From: Squalus acanthias
Taxonomy: Eukaryota
Reading direction: 5' to 3'
NCBI GenBank assembly: GCA_030390025.1
Contig: CM059432.1
Span: forward strand, 25,174,001-25,238,000
Length of the DNA: 64,000 nt
Position numbers and translations under genes: made by a program. Below the pieces are notes generated by a model that was not told the origin of the DNA, did not search any database, and was given only the letters and a program-made list of their open reading frames with translations. Position 1 is the stretch's first letter, and each line of letters starts with the position of its first letter. Of this stretch, positions 2,104 through 64,000 are shown piece after piece.

Positions 2104-3330
2104 GGGCTAGAAATTCGTTATAGCCAAGAAATGGGCAGTGTTTAGACTAAAAGGGCTAGAAATTCGGTATTTCCCCGGTTGGGGAGCTAATTTAAAAAAA
2201 GTTTCAGTGTTAGCGCCCGCTAAATTGATTGTTAGCGCTCCAAGGAAGATCTGGAGTGCTAACTCAAGTGATAATCAGCTAACTTAGGGCGCTACACACA
2301 GCGAGCGGGGCTCTACCCGCAGAGCGATAGCCAATTTCAGGTGCACTCCAATGGGACTTATCATTCAGACTGACTCCTTCCAATTCTTAAAGGGGAGGTT
2401 CAATCATTCAGCACAACATCATTCTTAATATTGCTGGCTCTGAAGGCGACCTCCAAGCAACTCAACAGCTACACCTCTTATCCTCATGGCTGATCCCAGT
2501 CCCAGGGAGCGAGCGCGCCGTTTCAGCAACCAGGCATTGGAGGCATTGGTCGCGGCAGTCAAAAGAAGGAGGGCAGTGCTGTTCCCTGTCTTCAGGGCAA
2601 TGTAGAGTGAAGTGGCCCAGGATGCCAGCAGTGTGGTCCTCAGGACCCTCACACAGTGTGGTATAAAATTCAACGACCTCACTCGGGTGGTCAGGGTGAG
2701 TACATGCTTCAACAAGTCCTACATCCCAGCATCTGAACCTTCAGTCTGTACACACTACACAAACCACCACACCCCCACCACTCACCCACCAAGCATCTGC
2801 ACCTACTCAAACTCACATCCACATCTCACGCCTTGCCAACAATCACAGCTGTTCAACTATGGCAGGCACGTCTCCCAACACATAGCTTCACACTCACTCA
2901 CACACTTTCCTTTCTCTTGCAGGCCAAGCTGGCCCACAATAGGAGGGAGCAGGAACGAACAGGCGGGGTGAAGCGGACATCCAACAGCTTACAGACCTGG
3001 AGGAGCGAGTGCTGAGAGTCATTGGGTGCCAGGTGGTGGGCGCCGTGGCCGTCGGCAACGTTGAACCCCTTGGGGACAACAACAGTATGTTCATCCCCTC
3101 TCCTTCTCTCATCCCACTTCCCCCTCACAGCACAACCCTTTCCCACTTTCCAGCTCATTATACAGTCTGCATTCCTTGCTCCCTTCTTGCCCCCCTGCCC
3201 TCACCTTAACATGAGTCTTGTGCCTTTATGCTTTCAGGTAATCAGCAACCAGCTGACCAGCCTGTCCCTGAGCCTCCCAGTGAGAGTAAGGCGGGAGAAG
3301 AGGAGGAGGAAGTACACACCGCGTCACTGC

Positions 3331-3684: not shown

Positions 3685-3728
3685 GCTCACCCACAGGCAG
3701 CAGCTCAGATACTGGCACTATGCAATAT

Positions 3729-3820
3729 GGGAGCGGTAGCTTAGTGGTAATGTCACTGGGCTAGTATTCCAGAGGCTTGGACTAATAATCCACAGACGTG
3801 AGTTCAAATCCCATCATGAC
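3729..3820 (+). promoter_or_regulatory. tRNA-Thr(AGU)-like Pol III internal promoter
   Basis: A box TAGCTTAGTGG (3737-3747) and B box GTTCAAATCC (3802-3811). Anticodon-arm-like CTGG(G)CTAGTA(T)TCCAG is present twice in tandem. Confidence 0.8.
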
Positions 3821-4152
3821 AGCCTGGGAATTTAAATTCAGTTAATTAAATAAATTTGGAATAAAAAGCTAGTATCAGTAATGGTGACCATGAAACAATC
3901 GGATTGTAGTAAAAACACATCTGGTTCACTAACGTCCTTTAGGGAGGGAAATCTGCCATCCTTACCTGGTCTGGCCTATATGTGACTCCAGACCCACAGC
4001 AATGTGGTTGGCTCTTAACTGCCCTCTGAAGTGGCCTAGCAAATCACTCAATTGTAACTAACCGCTGCAAAACATAATAAGAATGAAAACAGACGGGTCG
4101 ACCTCAGCACCGGCTACAGACACGGCAATGGCACACCCAGCCCAGTCGACCC

Positions 4153-6842
4153 TGCAAAGTCCTCCTCACCAACATCTGGGGACTTGTGCCAAAATTGGGA
4201 GAGCTGCCCCATAGACTAGTCAAGCAACAGCCTGACATAGTCATACTCACAGAATCAGCCAATGTCCCAAACTCCTCCATCACCATCCCTGGGTATGTCC
4301 TGTCCCACTGGCAGGACAGACCCACCAGGGGTGGTGGCACAGTGGTACACAGTTGGGAAGGAGTGGCCCTGGGAATCCTCAACATTGACTCTGAACCCCA
4401 TGAAGCTTCAGGGCAAGGAAACTTCCTGCTGATTACCACCTACTGCCCTCCCTCAGCTGATGAATCAGTACTCCATGTTGAACACCACTTGGAAGAAGCA
4501 CTGAGAGTAGCAAGGGCACAGAATGTACTCTGGGTGGGGGACTTCAATGTCCATCACCAAGAGTGGCTCAGTAGCACTACAGCTGGCCGAGTCCTGAAGG
4601 ACATACTGCCAGTTTGGGCCTACGACAGGTGGTGAGAGAACCAACACGAGGGGAAAAACCTACTTGACATCGTCCTCACCAATCTACCTGTCGCAGATGC
4701 ATCTCTCCATGACAGTATTGGTAGCAGTGACCACCGCACAGTCATTGTGGAGACAAAGTCCCATTTTCACATTGAGGATACCCTCCATCGTGTTATGTAG
4801 CACTACCACCGTGCTAAATGGGATAGATTCAGAACAGAATTGGGCATCTGTGAGGTGCTGTGGGCCATCAACAGCAGCAGAATTGTACTCCACCACAATC
4901 TTTAACCTCATGACCTGGCATATCCCTCACTCTACCATTACCACCAACCCTGGTTCAATAAGGAGTGTAGAAGAGCATGCCGGGAGCAGCACCAGGCGTA
5001 CCTAAAAATGAGGTGCCAACCTGGGGAACCTGCAACACAGGACTACATGCATGCTAAAAAGGAGAAGCAGCATGCTATAGACAGGGCTAAGCAATCCCAC
5101 AATCAACAGATCAGATCAAAGCTCTGCAGTCCTGCCACATCCAGTCATGAATGGTGGTGGACCATTAAACAACTAATGGGAGGAGGAGGCTCCGTGAATA
5201 TTCCCATCCTCAATGATGGTGGAGCCCAGCACATGAGTGCAAAAGACAAGGCTGAAGCGTTTGCAGCCAGAAGTGCCGAGTGGATGACCCATGATCAGCC
5301 TACTCCCAAGGTCCCCACCATCACAGAAGCCAGTCTTCAGCCAATTCGATTCACTCCAATTGACATCAAGAAATAGCTCAGCGCACTGGATACAGCAAAG
5401 GCTATGGGCCCCGACAACATCCCGGATATCGTGCTGAAGACTTGTGCTCCAGAACTAGCCAAGCTGTTCCAGTACAGCTACAACACTGGTATCTATCCGA
5501 CAATGTGGAAAACTGCCCAGGTATGTCCTGGCCACAAAAAGCAGGACAAATCCAACCCGGCCAATTACCGCCCTATCAGTCTACTTTCAATCATCAGCAA
5601 AGTGATGGAAGGTGTCATCGACAGTGCTATCAAGCGGCACTTACTCACCAATAACCTGCTCACTCATGCCCAGTTTGGTTTCCGCCAAGACCACTTGGCT
5701 CCCGACCTCATGACAGCCTTGGTCCAAACATGGACAAAGGAGCTGAATTCCAGAGGCGAGGTGAGAGTGAATGCCCTTGACATCAAGGCAGCATTCGACC
5801 GAGTGTGGCATCAAGGAGCCCTAGTAAAACTGAAGTCAATGGGAATCAGGGGGAAAACGCTCCACTGGCTGGGGTCATACCTAGCACAAAGGAAGATGGT
5901 TGTGGTGATTGAAGTTCAATCATCACAGCCTCAGGACATCGCTGCAGGAGTTCCTCAGGGCAGAGTCCTAGGCCCAACCATCTTCAGCTGCTTCATCAAT
6001 GACCTTCCCGCCAACATAAAGTCAGAAATGGAGATGTTCACTGATGACTGCACAGTGTTCTGCGCCATTCACAACTCCTTAGTCCATGCCCGCATGCAAC
6101 AAGACCTGGACAACGTTCAGGCTTGAGCTGATAAGTGGCAGGTAACATTCGCGCCACACTATCTCAAACAAGCGAGAATCTAACCTCCTCCCCTTGACAT
6201 TCAATGGCATTACCATCGCCGAATCCCCCACCATCAACATCCTGGGGGTCACCACTGACCAGAAACTTAACTGGACCAGCCACATAAATACTGTGGCCAC
6301 AAGAGCAGGTCAGAGGCTAGGTATTCTGTGGCGACTGTCTCACTTCCTGACTCCCCAAAGCCTTTCCACAATTTACAAGGCACAAGCCAGGAGTGTGATG
6401 GAATACTCTCCACTTGCCTGGATGAGTGCAGCTGCCACAACACTCAGGAAGCTCGACACCATCCAGGACAAAGCAGCCCGCTTGATTGGCACCCCATCCA
6501 CCACCTTAAACATTCACTCCCTCCACCACCGGCGTACCGTGGCTGCAGTGTGTACCATCTACAAGCAGCAACTTGCCAAGGCTTCTTCGGCAGCACCTGC
6601 CAAACCCGCGACCTCTTCCACCTAGAAGGACAAGGGCAGCAGGCGCATGGGAACACCACCACCTCCAAGTTCCCCTCCAAGTCACACACCATCCTGACTT
6701 AGAAGTATATCGCCGTTCCTTCATCGTCGCTGGGTCAAAATCCTGGAACTCCCTCCCTAACAGCACTGTGGGAGTACCTTCACCACAAGGACTGCAGCGG
6801 TTCAAGAAGGCAGCTCACCACCACCTTCTCAAGGGCAATTAG
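4153..6842 (+). pseudogene. ORF2 (apurinic-like endonuclease + reverse transcriptase), frameshifted
   Basis: Collinear ORF pieces 4186-4635, 5008-5376, 5404-6126, 6194-6625 and 6573-6842. Confidence 0.9.
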
Positions 6843-7966
6843 GGATGGGCAATAAATTCAGGCCTTGCCAGCGACGCCCAGATCTCATAAGCGAATTAAA
6901 AAAAATATTTAGAGGAAAGTTTAGTAGAGGGGTCTGCACTGGGTGATACACCAGGGACGAGTGGGCTGCAGCAAGGCCAATGGGAAAGGGTCGCTCGGGA
7001 GCCAGCTCCCCGGAGGGCGAGTTCGCGCACGAGTTCTGCTTCACAGGACTCAGATGAGGACCTCGATGGGGAGGCCTTCACAAGAAGGGTGCTGGGCATG
7101 CACTCCGAGATGATAGGTGCAATAGCAAGGGTGCCCGAGATCATGTCGGAAGTGGTAAGGAGCGTGGAGGAGTCCGCCTCCAATATTGCACAGAGCTCTG
7201 CGCACACCATGGAGCCCATCGTTGGCAGTCTGCAAAGGATGGTGGACTCCCTGAGAGAGTGTGGGGACCCAGACCTCATGCCGTGTGTCATGGGTGATGT
7301 GGCAGCAGCCATTGCAGCACAGGCAGAAGCCACGCAACGTCTTAGTGATGTAATATAGTCAATGGTTGCTGCCATCGAGGCTCAGACTGCTCTCATGCAG
7401 TCTCAGCTTGATGCCATACAAGCTCTGACTGCTGCTATCGTCGCTGGGTGCACCGCAGTCCACCAGGTATCCCACGGTGTCGCAGCAGGCCAGCAATCTG
7501 TGCTCCAGTAGATTGGTAGGATGACAGCATTCCTGCTCCCACCACTGCCACTCCGCCATTGCCCTTGTTGCTGCCTATCATCCAGCTAGGCTAGACTGCC
7601 GCCGCACAGCCTGAGGTGGTGCAGTGTACAGCCGGGCCTTCCAGGCTCAGAGCTGCAAGGCCATCTGTAGTCTCTGGCAACGACACTCAGCAGCCTTCCA
7701 CCAGCCCTGCTGCAGCTTCCGAGCACAGACTACGTAGGAGCAGTAGATTAGGAAAAGGGATTGTAAAGATGGGAGGTCAGGGATTGCACAAGGGTGATTA
7801 GTTAATACTGTTGTTGTATATATGTGTTTTCTGAATGTTGATAAATTTATTAATGGAATTTTGCAGATTTTGTGCTGTCTCTCATTTCAGCTTTGCGCTG
7901 TGATATGGCATGCGGAATGAATGGAATGATGGGGATGTGGTCAGCAACCGGGATTTAGGGTAGAAT

Positions 7967-9125
7967 TTATTGGAACCGCAGTCTGATGAGGCAGTCATGG
8001 ACCGACCTTCCAGAAGGCCGATTGAGTGGCTGCCTCCTCCCTCGCTGCTGTTCCTCCTCCTCCTCCTCCTCCTCTCTCTCTTCCTCCTCCTGAGGTGGTC
8101 CTGCTATGCCTGCTAGCAATGGCTGGGCCCTCATGATGGCCAAGTTGTGGAGCATGCAGCACACCACAACGAATAGTGACACCAGCTCTGGCGAGTACTG
8201 GAGGGCTCCTCCCGAGCGGTCAAGGCAGCGGAACCGTTGCTTGAGCACTCTGATGGTCTGCTCAATGATATTCCTGGTGGCGGCAATGGCTCTCATTATA
8301 TGAGTGCTGGGCAGGAGTGTTGGGGTTGCAGAGGGGAGTCATGAGCCAGGTGGAGAGCAGATACCCCTTGTCTCTGACCAGCCAGCTGCGAGCTTGATGT
8401 GATGACTGGAAGACTGCTGGAACACCGGTCTGGCGCAGGATGAAGGCATCATGGCTGCTGCCAGGATAACGGGTACTGATGGTGAGGACTCGCTGTCTGT
8501 GGTCGCTCACCAACTGGACATTAAGTGAGTGATAGCCTTTGCGGTTACGGAAGACCTCAGGATTGTTACGGGGTGCCCGCAAAGCGATGTGGATGCAGTC
8601 AATGGCGCCCTGCACCATGGGGAATCCCGCTATCCTGGCAAAGCCACATGCACGCTCGTCCTGCTTCTTTCTGGTGATGGGGAAGGAAATGTACTCCCTT
8701 TTCCTTCTGTAGAGAGCCTCTGTGACCTCCCAGATGCAGCAATGGACGGCGAACTGCGAGATGTTAGCTCTGTCTCCTGCTGCAGACTGAAAGGATCCGC
8801 TGGCATAGAAATTGAGGGCGACAGTGACCTTGACTGCCACTGAGAGAGCCGTGGTGGTCCTGATGTGAGGCTCGAGGTCTGGCTGCAGGAGGTGGCAGAG
8901 CTCTGTGACCACCTCCTTGGTGAAGCGGAGCCTTCTAAGACGCTGCTCCTCAGTTAAATTTATGTAGGAGAAGTGCTTCCAGAATACCCTGGGAGGGAAA
9001 GGCCTCCTGTTGAGAGCCCGCTTGGCACTCCTCACTCTGGCCACATTTTCCAATGCTTGTCTCTGCCTCCGCTGCCTCCGACGTTGACGCTGGAGGGTGC
9101 GGTCGAGTGCCAGTACAGCCCCCAT
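7967..9125 (-). pseudogene. Harbinger DDE transposase (HARBI1-like), one apparent frameshift near 8290
   Basis: RLRFTKE, VALNFYASGSFQ, GFPMVQGAIDCIHI, NRKGYHSLNVQLV, YPGSSHDAFIL, DKGY, IIEQTIRVLKQRFRCL, CCMLHN, acidic tail. Confidence 0.95.
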
Positions 9126-11143
9126 TAACGTAACCAAGTGTAGGACTTCGAAATGTTAGCAGAATGAAAGTGATTAATTTGTACCAGGCAGAACACTCCT
9201 GAAAGTTACAAACATTTATCTCACTGAAAACGAATGTTTCGCTATGTGAATCTGAGAAGGCAGCATTGATTGACAACTAAAATTTAACCGGATGTTGATC
9301 CCTTTAAATATTGCTCCTACAGCGGCCATCCGAATGCATCACGCCTCCTCTTCCTGCCTCCAAACGCAATGACGTCCCGATCTGGCACCCGCTAAAGGCC
9401 TAGGCGCTAAATGTTAGCGCCAGCGCTAAATCCCGGGTAAATTTCTCATGCGGTGTTGGATTCGCCGCGCCCTGCCGCAAACCCATTCGCGTCCTGTTAG
9501 CGCCCACTCCCCCAGGCGCTAATGGGAGGTGCTAACATGCCAAATTTCTCCCCCAAAATTGTTAACTAGCGCCAGTTGAATATCGTTTAGGCTGCATGCC
9601 AAATTCGTCCTCACTTCTCATTAAAATGATTGCAGTCATGGTTCTCGTCTAAAAACCCAAGTTAATTGGGATTACACTGAAAAGATGGACCAATATTGGG
9701 GGCAGTCTAAACGCAACTAATGATTGCCACAAGCTTTTTTCACTACTTAAAGGGGAGTTTCATTGATGCTGCAGCACCTCATTCTCAGCATTGTAGCTGC
9801 CTCAACAACCATAAGAAGAAGGACAAGGAGAAGGAGCATTTATTTACAAATCATGATGGCAGATCACCGCCCAGGGAGAGAGCCCGGAGGTTTTCTGATG
9901 AAGCATTCGAGGCATTGGTTTTAGCGCTGGAGAGAAGGCAGGCGGTTCTATACTCGTCAATTGGCAGGCAGCCTCGCCACAAGTCAGCCGGAGTATGTGG
10001 AGGGAGGTGGCACACCACGTCACGGGCAGCACAATGGTCCCCAGGACCTACACAAAGTGCAGGAAGAAGTTTAACGAGCTCACACAAGTGGTCAGGGTGC
10101 GTGAAGGCGTCAACAAATGCTACATACCACCATCTGTACCACAAGCTTCACACACTGCTCAATGTACCACACCCCCAGCACTCACCCACCATTAATCTCT
10201 ACCTAGCAACACTCACACCCACATCTCACACCTTGCACACAATGACAGCTATTCAACTATGGCAGGCACAAGGGTCATTAGTTATTAGAATTCATGTGAT
10301 ATGTGTGATATGTTTATGCATAAATTTATTAATTGTGTTTGGAATATTTTGTGGTCTCTCTCATTTCAGCTTTGCACCCAGGAGGACGCTATGATATGGC
10401 GTGAGACAGGGATTGTATGAAGGGGATGTGGTGAGCTACGGTGATCTGGCATTTCATTCATGTGAATCGGAGTGTGATGAGCCGGTCATGGACAGCCCGT
10501 CCAGAAGGCTGATTGTCTCGCTGCTTCCACCCTCCCTCCTGTTTCTCCTCCTCCTCATCCTACTCCTCCTCGTCCTCCTTGTCCTCTTCCTCCTCATCTT
10601 CCTCCTTCTCATCCTCCTCTGCCTCGTCGTCCTCCTGAGGTAATCCCGCAATCTCGCAGCCCCCATGACTGTGAGGAAGTGCTATGAGCAGAAGCCTTTA
10701 ACAAATAACGAGTGACTTCTGCACTTGAATCAACACGCCCTGTCAACAAAAAAACTTGAAATAACTAAAGAGAGCTGTTTCAGTTGCAAGAAGTATCAAA
10801 CAGGGACTGAAACTGCAAACCCTGTCAGGTACAGCTGATTGGGGATGGTGCCTTTAAATTTCGTTTTTGCAGCCTGCTTCCTGTTGGTAGATGCCAGCTC
10901 TCCCTGTCGTTGTTCTGCGCTGCCGTTAAGGTAAGTGGCTACAACGAATTTGGGAGATTGGACGTCCAATGAGTGTTGCACACTCACTAACGTCATGATC
11001 TCCGTGATGGCGAGGTCGCCAGCGATCGAGTTTATCGGCAGCACTACCAGCAACACCGATATGGTGTGCGGCGCTGGAACCGGCATCAGCTGTCATTAGA
11101 ACTGAAAACAGCGTGTTCATGACGCTAATGTGTGGCGCAAACC

Positions 11144-12869: not shown

Positions 12870-13125
12870 GGAAATCCTTCAGGGAAAGAAACATGCCATC
12901 CTTACCCTGTCAGGGCTCTATGTGACACCAGCCCCACGCCAAAGTGGTTGACTCTTAACTGCGCTTGAAGTGGCCTAGCAAGCCACTCAGTTGTATCAAG
13001 CTGCTACAAAGTATAGCGAGAATTGGACGCCAGCGTTCAAGGAGAAGGCCCACCACCGCCTTCTCAGGGCAACTAGGGTTGGGCAATAAGTGCCAGCCTT
13101 GCCATCCCAAGAATCAAAAGAAAAT
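12870..13125 (+). mobile_element. Short bipartite derivative of the tRNA-headed LINE (5' UTR segment + 3' tail)
   Basis: Matches ~3935-4070 (GCCATCCTTACC..TCTTAACTG..GGCCTAGCAAG) followed closely by ~6795-6890 (TTCAAG..CACCACC..GGGCAATAA). Confidence 0.75.
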
Positions 13126-22789: not shown

Positions 22790-24737
22790 TTGACACCCCT
22801 CTCCCTCTCCTGGCATGTGAAACTGTTGGCACATGGTCCAACAGTGCCTCAATTTTAAAATTCTCAGCCTCATGTACAAATCCTTTCATGGCCTCACCCC
22901 TCCATATCTCTGTAACCTCCTCCAGCCCTACAAACTTCCGAGAACTAGCCGCGCCTCTAGCCAAGCTACTCCAGTACAGCTACAACACTAGCATCTACCC
23001 GGCAATGTGGAAAATTGCCCAGATATGTCCTGTCCACAAAAAGCAGGACAAATCCAATCCAGCCAATTACCGCCCCATCAGGCTACTCTCAATCATCAGC
23101 AACGTGATGGAAGGCGTCGTCGACAGTGCTATCAAGTGGCACTTACTCACCAATAACCTGATTACTGATGCTCAGTTTGGGTTTCACCAGGACCACTCAG
23201 CTCCAGACCTCATGGACAAAACAGCTGAATTCCAGAGGTGAGGTGAGAGTGACTGCCCTTGACATCAAGGCAGCATTTGACCATGTGTGGCATCAAGGAG
23301 TCTTGTAAAATTGAAGTCAATGGGAATCAGGGGGAAAACTCTCAACTGGCTTGAGTCATACCTAGCACAAAGGAAGATGGTTGTGATTGTTGGAGGTCAA
23401 TCATCTCAGCTCCTGGACATCACTGCAGGAGTTCCTCAGGGCAGTGTCCTAGGCCCAAACATCTTCAGCTGCTTCATCAATGACCTTCCCTCCATCATAA
23501 GGTCAGAACTGGGGATATTCGCTGATGATTGCCCCATGTTCAGTTCCATTTACAACTCCTCAGATAATGAAGCAGTCCATGCCCGCATGCAGCAAGACCT
23601 GGAAAATATTCAGGCTTGGGCTGATAAGTGGCAAGTAATATTCACGCCACACAAGTGCTAGGCAATGACCACCTCCAACAAGAGAGAGTCTAACCACAGC
23701 CCCTTGACATTCAATAGCATTACCATCGCCAAATCCCCCACCATCAACATCCTGGGGGTCACCATTGACCAGAAACTTAATTGGACCAGCCACATAAATA
23801 CTGTGGCTACAAGAGCAGGTCAGAGGCTGGGTATTCTGCGGCGAGTGTCTCACCTCCTGACTCCCCAAAGCCTTTCCACTATCTACAAGGCACAAGCCAG
23901 GAGTGTGATGGAATACTCTCCACTTGCCTGGATGAGTGCAGCTCCAGCAACACTCAAGAAGCTCGACACCATCCAGGACAAAGCAGCCTGCTTGATTGGC
24001 ACCCTATCCACCACCTTAAACATTCACTCCCTCCACCACTGGCGCACCGTGGCTGCAGTGTGTACCATCTACAAGATGCACTGCAGCAACTTGCCAAGGT
24101 TTATTCGACAGCACCTCCCAAACCCGCGACCTCTACCACCTAGAAGGACAAGGGCAGCAGGCGCATGGGAACACCACCACCTCCAAGTTCCCCTTCAAGT
24201 CACACAACATCCTGACTTTGAAATATATCGCCGTTCCTTCAACGTCACTGGGTCAAAATCCTGGAACTCCCTCCCTAACAGCACTGTGGGAGTACCTTCA
24301 TCACATGGACAGCAGCGGTTCAAGAAGGAAGCTCACCACCACTTTCTCAAGGACAATTAGGGATGGGCAATAAATGCTGGCCTTGTCAGTGATGCCCACA
24401 TCCCATGAACAATTTTTTTTTTTTAAAACTCTGAGTTCCTGTAATTCTGGCCTCATGTTCATCCCCGATTTTCATCGCTCTACAATTGGTGGAAATGTCT
24501 TCCGTCATCTAGGCCCTAAACTCTGGAGTTCCCTTCCTAAACCTCTCCATCTCTCAAACTCTCTCTCCTTTTTTTAAATTCTCCTTAAAACCTACCCTTT
24601 AACCAAGCTTTTTGGTCAACTGTCCTCATGTCTCATTCTTTGGTTCAATGTCAATTTTTGTCTGATTACACTCCTGTAAAGCACTTTGGGACATTTTACT
24701 ACGTTAAATATAAATGCAAGTTGTTGTTGTTATTGTT
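22790..24737 (+). mobile_element. L2 3' end (22790-22939 + 24425-24737) split by a LINE insertion
   Basis: Collinear with the L2 at 16204-16885; ends TATAAATGCAAG(TTG)n. Confidence 0.75.
22940..24424 (+). mobile_element. 5'-truncated copy of the tRNA-headed LINE family
   Basis: RT and C-terminus closely similar to 5450-6903 ([31 protein letters not shown]). Confidence 0.95.
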
Positions 24738-31550: not shown

Positions 31551-31811
31551 GGGGGTACGGTAGCATAGTCGTTATGTTACTGAACTAGTAATCCAGAGAG
31601 CTGGACTATTGATCTAGAGACGTGAGTTCAAAACCCACCACAGGCAGCTGGGGAATTTAAATTCCTAACAGCACTGTAGGAGTACCTTCACCACACGGAC
31701 AGCAGCGGTTAGAATGTGGCTCACCACCACCTTCTCAAGGGCAATTAGGGATGGGCAATAAATGCTGACCTTGCCAGCGTTGTCCACATCCCAAGAACAA
31801 CTTAAAAAAAA
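31551..31811 (+). mobile_element. SINE consisting of the head and tail of the tRNA-headed LINE
   Basis: 31551-~31664 matches 3729-3839; it is joined to CCTAACAGCACTG.. matching 6756-6903; A-tail. Confidence 0.85.
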
Positions 31812-51825: not shown

Positions 51826-52227
51826 TCCTTCCTCTCCCTGGCTGAACTTGTTCTTACATTGAACAACTTTGGCTGCATTTATTTGGAGGACAAGACACAC
51901 CCTACAGTTTGTCTGGAATGTGTAATTTGATCCAGTCATGGTCACAGGCAGGCTCGCCAAGCCAAGCTGATCCAGTGTAGCCATGACAGTGGCATCTACC
52001 TGTTAATGTGGAGGGTCACCTAGAAAAGCAAGATAACTCTCATCCAGCCTTGTATGGCCTGCCCTGTCGACCTCCTCCCAACCATCAATTGAGTGAAATA
52101 ATATAAAATGCTGGAAATGCTCAGCAAGTCAGGCAGCATCTGTGGAGAGAGAAGCAGAGTTAACGTTTCAGGTCGATGACCTTTCAGTTAACTCTGTTTC
52201 TCTTTCTGTAAATGCTGCCTCATTTGC

Positions 52228-54264
52228 ACAGTGTTCAGTGCCATTCGCAACTCCTCAGATAATGAAGCAGTCCATGCCCGCATGCAGCAAGACCTGGACG
52301 ATGTTCAGGCTTGGGCTGATAAGTGGCAGGTAACATTTGCGTCACAAAAGTGCAAGGCAATGACTATCTCCAACAAGCGAGCGTCTAACCACCGCCCCTT
52401 GATATTCAACAGCATTACCATCACCGAATCCCCCACCATCAATATCCTGGGGTTCACCATTGACCAGAAACTTAACTGGACCAGCCACTTAAATACTATG
52501 GCACCAAAATCAGGTCAGAGGCTGGGTATTCTGTGGCGACTGTCTCACCTCCTGACACCCCAAAGCCTTTCCACCATCTACAAGGCACAAGTCAGGAGTG
52601 TGATGTAATACACTCCACTTGCCTGGATGAGTGCAGCTCCAACAACACTCAAGAAGCTTGACACCATCCAAGACAAAGCAGCCCGCTTGATTGGCACCCC
52701 ATCCACCACCTTAAACATTCACTCCCTCCACCACCGGCTTACCGTGGCTGCAGTGTGTACCATCTACAAGATGCACTGCAGCAACTCGCCAAGGCTTCTT
52801 CGGCAGCACCTGCCAAACCCGCGTCCTCTACCACCTAGAAGGACAAGGACAGCAGGCGCATGACAACACTGAAGGGATAATTACTAGTCGAAGCCCCTTT
52901 AGGGCTACCCTGGATCAGGCGTATTCCTCAGACGTTCACTTTCAACTAAAGTTTGAGGTAGCCGAATCCTAAAGACGCTTAATTGGGTCTAAAGGTCCGG
53001 ACTATCTCTCCCTAAAGGAAAGGAACAACCTGAAAATGTTACCGTCCTCCAGATAGCACTTTTAATAAGTTTAGCTAGACTGTAATGTTCCGGATATTAT
53101 GAGGGTCCGGAAAACTCCCTCAGAATTCTGCAACTCCTCACCAAAGAGTGTACAGAAATTGAGTTTGCGAGTTTGATACAGAAGTCTTATGTGAGACAAT
53201 TCTAAAAATATATAGATTTATTAAAGAACCGACATGTATTTTACAGTTGATGAGTCAATTGTAACATTAACAGTTCCAAAAAGAGAAAGCTTACAATTCT
53301 ATTATCAGAGAACCTTACTCTCAAATCTTAACTTTGCTACAGTTTTACAGTTCATAGTTTTCTACAGGATATCCACCAAAATCAAATACCTTTGATCCCC
53401 GAGGCACAAAGAGTTGGAGACTTACAGAGCTGCCTCTGAAGCCGAGAATCGCTTTGTCCCTTTAAAGCGAGTCTACTATCTCATTTGAGAGTTCAATATT
53501 TATACCCTTTTCCAGTGGTATTTCCTTTAAGGTTTTCTGCTGATGTAAGCTAATTATCTCTAATCATTTTTCTGCTGACCCCTGCAATTCTTACAGTCAC
53601 CTCAGCTGGTAGCATTCCCGAATTATGTCTCTTCTCTAGGTGTTCTAAGTTTACCATAAAAAACGGTGTAATGGCAGGTGTGTTTTACTTGATGTCATTT
53701 TTACGAAGGCAGATGTTTCTTACTTTTATGTGCCTCTTTACAAAATGTAAATTAGAACACCTTGTACAGGGTGAACCATTGTTTGATTCCGAAAGGTTCA
53801 GACTACCGGAGCCTTTAACCTTCTGTTTCAATAAGGTTATTGATTCAGTGTCAACAACTATCTTATCTCTATAGCCACAATGCTTTCACAGCTTTTTCAT
53901 AGTTAGGTTTCTAGATTTCCAGACCCAGTTTGTCATGTTTTAATAAGGCCAGAATTCTTTCATAGAATGATGTATTTTTCTGAATAGGTTATATGGCTTA
54001 TTCCTTCACAACACCACCACCTCCAAGTTCCCCTCCACATCGCACACCATCCTGACTTGGAAGTATATCGCCGATCCTTCATCGTCACGGCGTTAAAATC
54101 CTGGGACTCCCTACCTAACAGCACTGTGGGAGTACCTTCACCACACGGACTGCAGCGGTTCAAGAAGGCGGCTCACCACCACCTTCTCAAGGGCAATTAG
54201 TGATGGGCAATAAATGCTGGCTTTGCCAGCGACACCCACATTCGATGAACAAATAAAAAAAATA
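52228..54264 (+). mobile_element. 5'-truncated copy of the tRNA-headed LINE family, interrupted by a solo LTR
   Basis: TSD ATTTGC (52222-52227, 54265-54270); collinear with 6050-6903. Confidence 0.92.
52870..54010 (-). mobile_element. Solo LTR (~1140 bp), possibly foamy-like ERV
   Basis: Terminal inverted repeat TGAAGG(G/A)ATAA; TSD ACAC (end 54010) or CAACAC (end 54008); minus-strand TATAAATA at 53504-53497, GTAAGT at 53425, AATAAA at 53222-53217. Confidence 0.8.
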
Positions 54265-63597: not shown

Positions 63598-63784
63598 TAC
63601 TATCTGTTGTTTACTCTCCATCAAATGTTCAGTTTATTCTTCTGTCCAGAACCTTTCGTATTCAGTGCATAGATATGGTCTGCAAAACATATGCATTATA
63701 TTGTTGGGCATATTTGTGTGGAGGATGCGACTGTCGATTCTATTCTACTGCATTGACAATAATGGGAACACAGATGTTTTTTTA

Positions 63785-64000
63785 TTCATTTTTATGGGAT
63801 GTGGGCGTCGCTGGCAAGGCCAGCATTTATTCCCCATCACTAATTGCCCTTGAGAAGGTGGTGGTGAGCCACCTTCTTCAACTGCTGCAGGCCGTGTGGT
63901 GAAGCTATTCCCACAGTACTGTTAGGGAGGGACTACCAGGATTTTGATCCAACGACGATGAAGGATCGGCCATATACTTCTAAGTCAGGATGGTGTGTAA
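63785..64000 (-). mobile_element. 3' end of the tRNA-headed LINE family (runs out of the window)
   Basis: Reverse complement of ~6683-6900. Confidence 0.9.

Follow-up and report, generated by a model that had tools for sequence, protein, structure and literature searches.

An ORF1-less Zenon LINE of Squalus acanthias with A and B boxes in a tRNA-like head at its 5′ end

Structure of the insertion

The analysed window is a 64,000-nt stretch of Squalus acanthias DNA (GenBank assembly GCA_030390025.1, contig CM059432.1, positions 25,174,001 to 25,238,000 of the forward strand), and the positions given below are counted from its first letter. At 3729-6903, the window contains a decayed full-length copy of a long interspersed nuclear element (LINE), which belongs to the abundant Zenon LINEs of elasmobranchs that lack the first open reading frame (ORF1). 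The element opens at 3729 with GGGAGCGGTAGCTTAGTGG, and its 5′ end is formed by a tRNA-like head, in which an A box and a B box are present, and by a body of the type known from short interspersed nuclear elements (SINEs). The leader of this copy comprises 345 nt without a long frame, and then the endonuclease begins with its N-terminal motif KVLLTNIWGL at 4156. Pfam searches of the element detected Exo_endo_phos, Exo_endo_phos_2, and RVT_1 (approximately 5545-6102, E=1.3e-28), in an ORF2 that is interrupted by stops and frameshifts in this copy. A preliminary description of this DNA had listed the A box, B box, leader, endonuclease motif, reverse transcriptase, C-terminus, and A-tail, and all of them are located where it had placed them (Table 1).

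The element is bracketed by a 5-nt target-site duplication, AATAT. In 19/19 paralogs examined, the host repeat runs uninterrupted through the site (..ctatgcGATCTttagagg..), where the paralogs have one pentamer, GATCT, and the window has AATAT. Given these empty paralogs and the 5-nt duplication, the 3,175 nt consisting of the head, leader, ORF, and tail are one insertion, in agreement with the single integration that had been proposed from the one duplication around the whole unit.

The downstream flank is a multi-copy host repeat, as found in 40/40 scored places (6,366 first-look candidates). The preliminary description had also stated that removal of the insert restores the Myb frame of a Harbinger element, and this statement stands in part. 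The interrupted host frame is real and remains open over 282-315 amino acids in the paralogs, and no Pfam family, Myb included, matched it. The Harbinger-type label for the host repeat is plausible because a DDE_Tnp_4 (PIF/Harbinger-type) transposase frame of 296 amino acids is located nearby (8262-9152, minus strand, E=8.7e-20), whereas the Myb label is unconfirmed.

Table 1. Features of the Zenon insertion in the window
Feature	Position	Strand	Basis
Upstream target-site duplication, AATAT	3724..3728	.	Sequence; single pentamer without insert in 19/19 paralogs
tRNA-like head, the 5′ terminus of the family; A box 3737-3747, B-box core 3802-3811	3729..3838	+	
SINE-type body and leader, non-coding; conserved out-of-frame ATG at 4083-4085	3839..4155	+	
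Decayed ORF2: endonuclease from 4156, RVT_1 at about 5545-6102, C-terminal region, stop at 6840-6842	4156..6842	+	
Short 3′ untranslated region (about 55 nt), in common with SINE tails	6843..6895	+	
Terminal A-run, 8 nt, continuous with the two leading A's of the duplication	6896..6903	+	
Downstream target-site duplication, AATAT	6904..6908	.	Sequence; empty-site paralogs

Occurrence of the head-to-endonuclease junction

A 381-nt query across the leader-to-endonuclease joint gave 5,471 first-look candidates, of which 39 other places were scored. The junction is kept in all 39 over the full query length, with 89-92% identity. A second query consisting of the endonuclease region alone gave 29 further loci, and the same leader is located upstream in 29/29. 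Approximately 19 of these reach the first 15 nt of the head, and the others are 5′-truncated at scattered points. None of the 29 loci is a full-length Zenon element with an ordinary ORF1, an ordinary 5′ untranslated region (UTR), or any other 5′ end. Two loci, L064 and L069, had been considered as alternative 5′ ends, but they are plain truncations with unrelated flanks.

Among the 20 fully fetched loci, 15 align with the window element from the first to the last base (3.2-3.3 kb), and their flanks are unrelated except for one segmental duplicate pair. After re-fetched and duplicated places had been dropped, 94 non-redundant copies remained. They diverge from the column majority by a median of 3.3% (4.4% for the window copy), and 43 of them begin no more than 15 nt from the same first base. 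All 17 full-length copies inspected at both ends (17/17) terminate in an A-run of 5-10 nt. This short and uniform run may be templated rather than added. A target-site duplication of at least 5 nt is visible in only 2/17 full-length copies and is not a hallmark of the family.

The preliminary description had proposed a family of autonomous, SINE-headed LINEs without ORF1, and a one-off template switch as the alternative. The former is supported by the recurrence of the junction and by the selection on ORF2 described below. The latter does not hold, since the junction is not unique to the locus and is the same in all sampled copies. A relative bearing an ordinary ORF1 or 5′ UTR, which the description had considered, was likewise absent among the sampled loci.

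Most of the best RVT_1 matches in the 3.7-Gb genome are Zenon copies. Frames of 805-971 amino acids that appeared as Zenon in this genome-wide search (L180, L182, and L184) were rejected as chance in-frame fusions with a nested CR1/L2-like LINE, and they served afterwards as controls. At one locus (L013:2450-2844, minus strand), there is a second element that has the head (89% identity), a junction region 75% identical to that of the window, and a body shorter by approximately 130 nt. It is interrupted by a younger Zenon copy and possibly represents a Zenon lineage of like architecture that is older or has undergone deletion. The window itself contains four more 5′-truncated Zenon fragments with 87-90% identity, at 22957-24406 (+), 52225-52869 and 54010-54261 (+), and 63777-63998 (−).

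Correspondence to catalogued Zenon elements

Judged from the first 400 nt of the consensus, this family has an existing catalogue entry, SquAca_Zenon-1 (Stuart et al. 2026, Genome Biol Evol, PMC13343379, Supplementary Table 2), and the clade label Zenon for its reverse transcriptase rests on the label given there. That stretch of SquAca_Zenon-1 contains exact words of 18 nt and 23 nt from the family copies and agrees almost letter for letter, by eye, with our best single copy, L141; the same head opens the consensus. Its listed consensus length is 3,314 nt and its top insertion length is 3,322 nt. The value given for it as 'Proportion_of_intact_ORF2' in Supplementary Table 3 is 675852, evidently a garbled fraction. 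Further consensuses in the same source are SquAca_Zenon-2 and -3 and the Zenon-1 elements of CarCar, RhiTyp, ScyCan, and HypSab.

The comparison of consensuses covers the first 400 nt of each, and the following features were identified by eye. Seven elasmobranch consensuses from five species have the A box at their extreme 5′ end, and those of three other species include the canonical B box (GGTTCGAATCC). In four other elasmobranch species, the A box and the B box are followed by a near-identical body and the same ATG. No such head or body was found in the first 400 nt of three non-elasmobranch consensuses.

According to the available text of PMC13343379, Zenon elements universally lack ORF1, and this absence is the published norm for both Zenon and Rex1. 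Therefore, the premise in the preliminary description that LINEs of the CR1 group normally carry ORF1 was too broad. The same text sets Zenon apart from canonical CR1 by the absence of ORF1 and by the 3′ end, which is described as a poly-A tail, unlike other CR1-group elements. In its main text, the terms 'tRNA', 'promoter', and 'polymerase III' each have 0 occurrences. Our literature search, which included the available text of PMC5786205, PMC5499810, PMC11481361, PMC10468316, and bioRxiv 10.1101/443036, found no statement of a LINE with such a head; subscription papers, such as Ogiwara et al. 1999 and Nishihara et al. 2006, were outside its scope. The family and its ORF1-less state are thus known, and what we did not find described in these sources is the tRNA-like head, which is real, family-wide, and present at the start of the published consensuses of five elasmobranch species.

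The tRNA-like head

In tRNA-type (type 2) promoters of RNA polymerase III (Pol III), the A box has the consensus TRGCNNAGTGG and is expected about 10 nt from the 5′ end, and the B box, with the consensus GGTTCGANNCC, is expected 30-60 nt downstream of it. The A box of the window element, TAGCTTAGTGG (3737-3747, element positions 9-19), fits the consensus exactly. The B-box core, GTTCAAATCC (3802-3811, element positions 74-83), is located 54 nt past the A box and departs from the canonical GGTTCGANNCC at two positions. Among 38 copies, the A box is retained in 34 and the B box in 30. A relaxed pattern of the A box followed by the B box occurs once in the 64-kb window, at the head, with 0.13 occurrences expected by chance; at least one match was obtained in 12/100 shuffled windows. 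The fold of the head has a z-score of −0.74.

Coding capacity and selection on ORF2

The column majority of the 94 copies gives an ORF2 that is open over 962 codons with 0 internal stops; it begins at element position 307 and closes 66 nt short of the 3′ end. The consensus envisaged in the preliminary description thus has an open ORF2. In L141, the best-preserved single copy, 961 codons contain one stop, and a fully intact copy was not present among those fetched. Any one stop is common to at most 14/89 copies. There is no room for ORF1, as had been noted before; approximately 306 nt precede the ORF2 frame, and no frame that starts with ATG in the leader is longer than approximately 49 codons.

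Upstream of codon 278, ORF2 lacks an in-frame ATG. Near its start, a single ATG is well kept; it is located at element position 335 in the +1 frame (71/93 copies) and also occurs in the consensuses of all five elasmobranch species. This ATG opens a Gly/Pro-rich frame of approximately 49 codons (element positions 335-485, L141:1050-1200), which overlaps the start of the endonuclease. In the first 18 codons of the +1 frame, 7/12 between-species changes counted by eye are on its third positions, a small number of changes. No canonical −1 slippery heptamer was found by eye between this ATG and the endonuclease motif. The +1-frame ATG may belong to a translated frame or may mark an unusual start of ORF2.

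For the analysis of selection, private variants were taken as decay after insertion, and shared variants (in at least four copies and at least 5%) were taken as having arisen in propagating lineages; CpG transitions were excluded. The private variants comprise 487 synonymous and 1562 non-synonymous changes (stops included, 83), and the shared variants comprise 71 synonymous and 81 non-synonymous changes (stops included, 1). The shared variants thus have a synonymous excess over the private variants (odds ratio 2.8, p=3e-9), and third codon positions are likewise enriched among them (p=2e-4). When the ten most frequent shared variants were split by allele, full-head copies occurred on both sides of every split, numbering 11-21 for the minor allele and 19-30 for the major allele. 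Contigs from four sequencing runs, which are pieces of 100-200 nt that reveal neither transcript ends nor strand, were used only for letter differences between organisms, as a separate hint. Among the ORF2 differences listed as specific to the contigs of two organisms, relative to two others and L141, 9/12 are on third codon positions.

The synonymous enrichment among shared variants in head-bearing lineages indicates that ORF2 has been under purifying selection while attached to the head. An ancestral ORF2 that was intact and under selection implies an element dependent on its own protein, and this indicates an autonomous element.

Transcription of the coding RNA

If Pol III transcribes the element, it would start approximately 8 nt upstream of the A box, at what is the uniform 5′ end of the family. 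It would then read through a body free of terminators of four T's (T4), and the transcript would end within or just past the short A-run encoded by the element, the site of priming by the reverse transcriptase. Translation of ORF2 would require an unconventional start because there is no in-frame AUG. The majority state has 0 T4+ runs (four or more T's) in 3,259 nt, against 15 A4+ runs. Single copies contain 0.38 T4+ runs on average, in positions that differ from copy to copy apart from a 3′-terminal TTTT in nine copies. Two control LINE families in this genome, whose T content equals or exceeds that of the element, have 2.3-6.7 T4+ runs per kb. One of the families that served as a control for T-runs is a separate, young-looking LINE family (L177, L178, L179, L181, L186, and L187, on several contigs), which has intact frames of up to 1,306 amino acids, an upstream frame of 576-730 amino acids, and 22% identity to the Zenon reverse transcriptase. 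Besides the contrast in T4 runs, the points in favour of Pol III are the suitable distance of the two boxes from the uniform 5′ end, their retention across species, the short A-run of uniform length, and the SINE that combines the two ends of the element.

Our best explanation, to which we assign a probability of about one half, is that the element is a decayed single-ORF Zenon LINE whose own 5′ end consists of a tRNA-like head and a SINE-type body, with the head likely to be an internal Pol III promoter. For the transcription of the coding RNA by Pol III, as judged from these sequence features, we see roughly even odds.

Several points weigh against a Pol III promoter in the head. Zero T4 runs were also obtained in 208/1000 dinucleotide-preserving shuffles and in 76/500 synonymous-codon shuffles, and the depletion is not significant with respect to the composition of the element itself. 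The depletion is therefore a matter of low TT and Phe content rather than of codon placement, and this low content could have other causes. AATAAA motifs are located at the extreme 3′ end and 45-50 nt upstream of it, so that a poly(A) route of RNA polymerase II (Pol II) is possible. A search of sequencing runs for the element sequence gave no matching run recorded as RNA. As a rule, transcripts of Pol III lack a cap, are short, and are translated poorly, and we know of no precedent among LINEs for a 3.3-kb coding Pol III RNA. The Rfam tRNA covariance model gave 23.2 bits at 3736-3815 in the window and 14.5 bits in L141, both below the gathering score of 29; the D, anticodon, and T arms align to the model with an insertion of 22-23 nt. 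When 15 whole loci were searched together with this model, there was nothing at E≤1, because a score of approximately 20 bits drowns in that search space. ARAGORN detected no tRNA in the window element. Finally, the shared-to-private ratios are 0.118 for the head, 0.107 for the body, 0.109 for third codon positions, and 0.057 for first and second codon positions, and the within-family constraint on the head and body is no greater than that on third codon positions.

A rival explanation is an autonomous Zenon LINE whose coding RNA is made by Pol II. The head would then be a Pol II promoter or 5′ UTR module, a chromatin opener acting through TFIIIC, or a relic, and Pol III would transcribe the short SINEs only. 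A capped mRNA is normally required for translation, and the AATAAA motifs near and at the 3′ end, the non-significant depletion of T4 runs, the absence of extra constraint on the head and body, and the poly-A tail in the published description (PMC13343379) all agree with this explanation. It accounts less readily for an A box at the very 5′ end of seven elasmobranch consensuses from five species and for a 5′ end fixed 8 nt upstream of that box. The contrast in T4 runs with the two control LINEs and an A-run of uniform length (5-10 nt), unlike a variable poly(A), in copies without 3′ flank, also argue against it. We regard transcription by Pol II as a serious possibility, to be entertained tentatively.

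The element could also be a non-autonomous 'long SINE', in which a 5′-truncated LINE was fused to a SINE head and amplified in trans by another LINE, with ORF2 as a passive passenger. The purifying selection on ORF2 in head-bearing lineages and a majority frame open over 962 codons argue against a passive ORF2. Moreover, no Zenon with another 5′ end was present in the 29 endonuclease-sampled loci, the arrangement of head and ORF2 recurs in the consensuses of five elasmobranch species, and Zenon is described as universally ORF1-less (PMC13343379). The lack of an in-frame AUG before codon 278, the position of the sole conserved ATG in the +1 frame, and the lack of a fully intact copy among those fetched, the best having one stop, would suit such a passenger, and we consider this origin improbable. 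An assembly by chance at this locus, either by a one-off template switch of the U6-L1 type or by two abutting nested insertions, has a negligible probability. The one-off chimera is refuted by the same junction in every sampled copy (39/39 and 29/29), and nested insertions are opposed by the single duplication around the whole insert together with the 19/19 empty paralogs.

SINEs sharing both ends of the LINE

The window also contains SINEs related to the Zenon LINE. An old, 5′-truncated fragment at 12875-13120 (+) consists of the body of the Zenon leader joined to the last 110-128 nt or so of the LINE. When this fragment was used as the query, 39/39 other scored matches spanned the body-to-tail joint, and this SINE family is abundant. 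In 11/11 loci, a SINE of approximately 450 nt is collinear with LINE positions 1-320 and 3132-3259 (the last 128 nt). As aligned, this SINE is in structure the LINE minus its ORF, and the data fit either the LINE or the SINE coming first.

A different SINE of approximately 250 nt, at 31558-31809 (+), has the head immediately followed by the terminal 148 nt of the LINE, without the body and with its own A-run. The head is 80% and the tail is 86% identical to those of the LINE. A scan of the 640 kb of fetched DNA for such head-plus-tail SINEs gave only this one, inside the window. A body-to-tail joint similar to that of the longer SINE was also observed in contigs of other organisms, which have loose ends.

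With somewhat less than even confidence, and on the first 400 nt of the consensuses for the other species, we suggest that the head architecture has been kept across sharks and rays and that the Zenon LINE may be the direct parent of the tRNA-headed SINEs. Their conserved body would then have begun, or would persist, as the 5′ leader of a LINE.

Implications and comparison with known systems

LINEs are textbook Pol II elements, and SINEs are textbook Pol III parasites. A coding LINE with a SINE promoter as its own 5′ end blurs this division of polymerases, and it would provide a concrete, testable case of a messenger made by Pol III. It also suggests a simple origin of SINEs, as the LINE minus its ORF, and possibly the origin of a widely conserved SINE body. 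If the head is only a Pol II leader, the finding is reduced to an annotation note on a known family. The interesting question is whether the head acts as a Pol III promoter of the coding RNA, and an abundant family with public consensuses makes it directly approachable in shark tissue.

Chimeras of the U6-L1 type are independent one-off events with variable junctions. The Zenon element resembles them in having the sequence of a small Pol III RNA 5′ of LINE sequence within one duplication-flanked insertion. It differs in that its junction is fixed and is inherited family-wide and across species.

SacSINE1 and other Deu-type SINEs, which are tRNA-headed SINEs of cartilaginous fishes, were reportedly described by Nishihara and co-workers in 2006. 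The body of the Zenon leader may be of the Deu type, and the SINE of approximately 450 nt may be identical with SacSINE1. As far as the available descriptions of these SINEs go, they resemble the Zenon element in the head, which is related to tRNA and contains both boxes, in the conserved body at the centre, and in the tail of LINE type. However, these SINEs are short and non-coding, whereas the Zenon element is 3.26 kb long and has an ORF of 962 codons between the same two ends. In the available text of Luchetti et al. 2017 (PMC5499810), SacSINE1 copies are up to 463 bp long, and their tail is assigned to an L2-type LINE.

In contrast to canonical CR1, which has an esterase-type ORF1, none of the sampled full-length Zenon copies has an ORF1. 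With the elasmobranch Zenon elements, as presented in the available parts of PMC13343379, the window element shares a single ORF with endonuclease and reverse transcriptase, the absence of ORF1, an A-rich 3′ end, and a length of approximately 3.3 kb. There is no structural difference between them; what the available text of that paper does not describe is the tRNA-like head with boxes common to SINEs.

In the model of bipartite non-autonomous LINEs of Kojima 2018 (PMC5786205, available text), SINE bodies arise from LINE 5′ UTRs through internal deletion and the addition of a small-RNA head. The LINE that receives the head there has undergone the deletion beforehand and is transcribed by Pol II, and the clades concerned are RTE, Ingi, Vingi, and R2. 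The shark SINE agrees with this model in being exactly the LINE minus its ORF. In Zenon, however, the full-length coding LINE itself bears the head.

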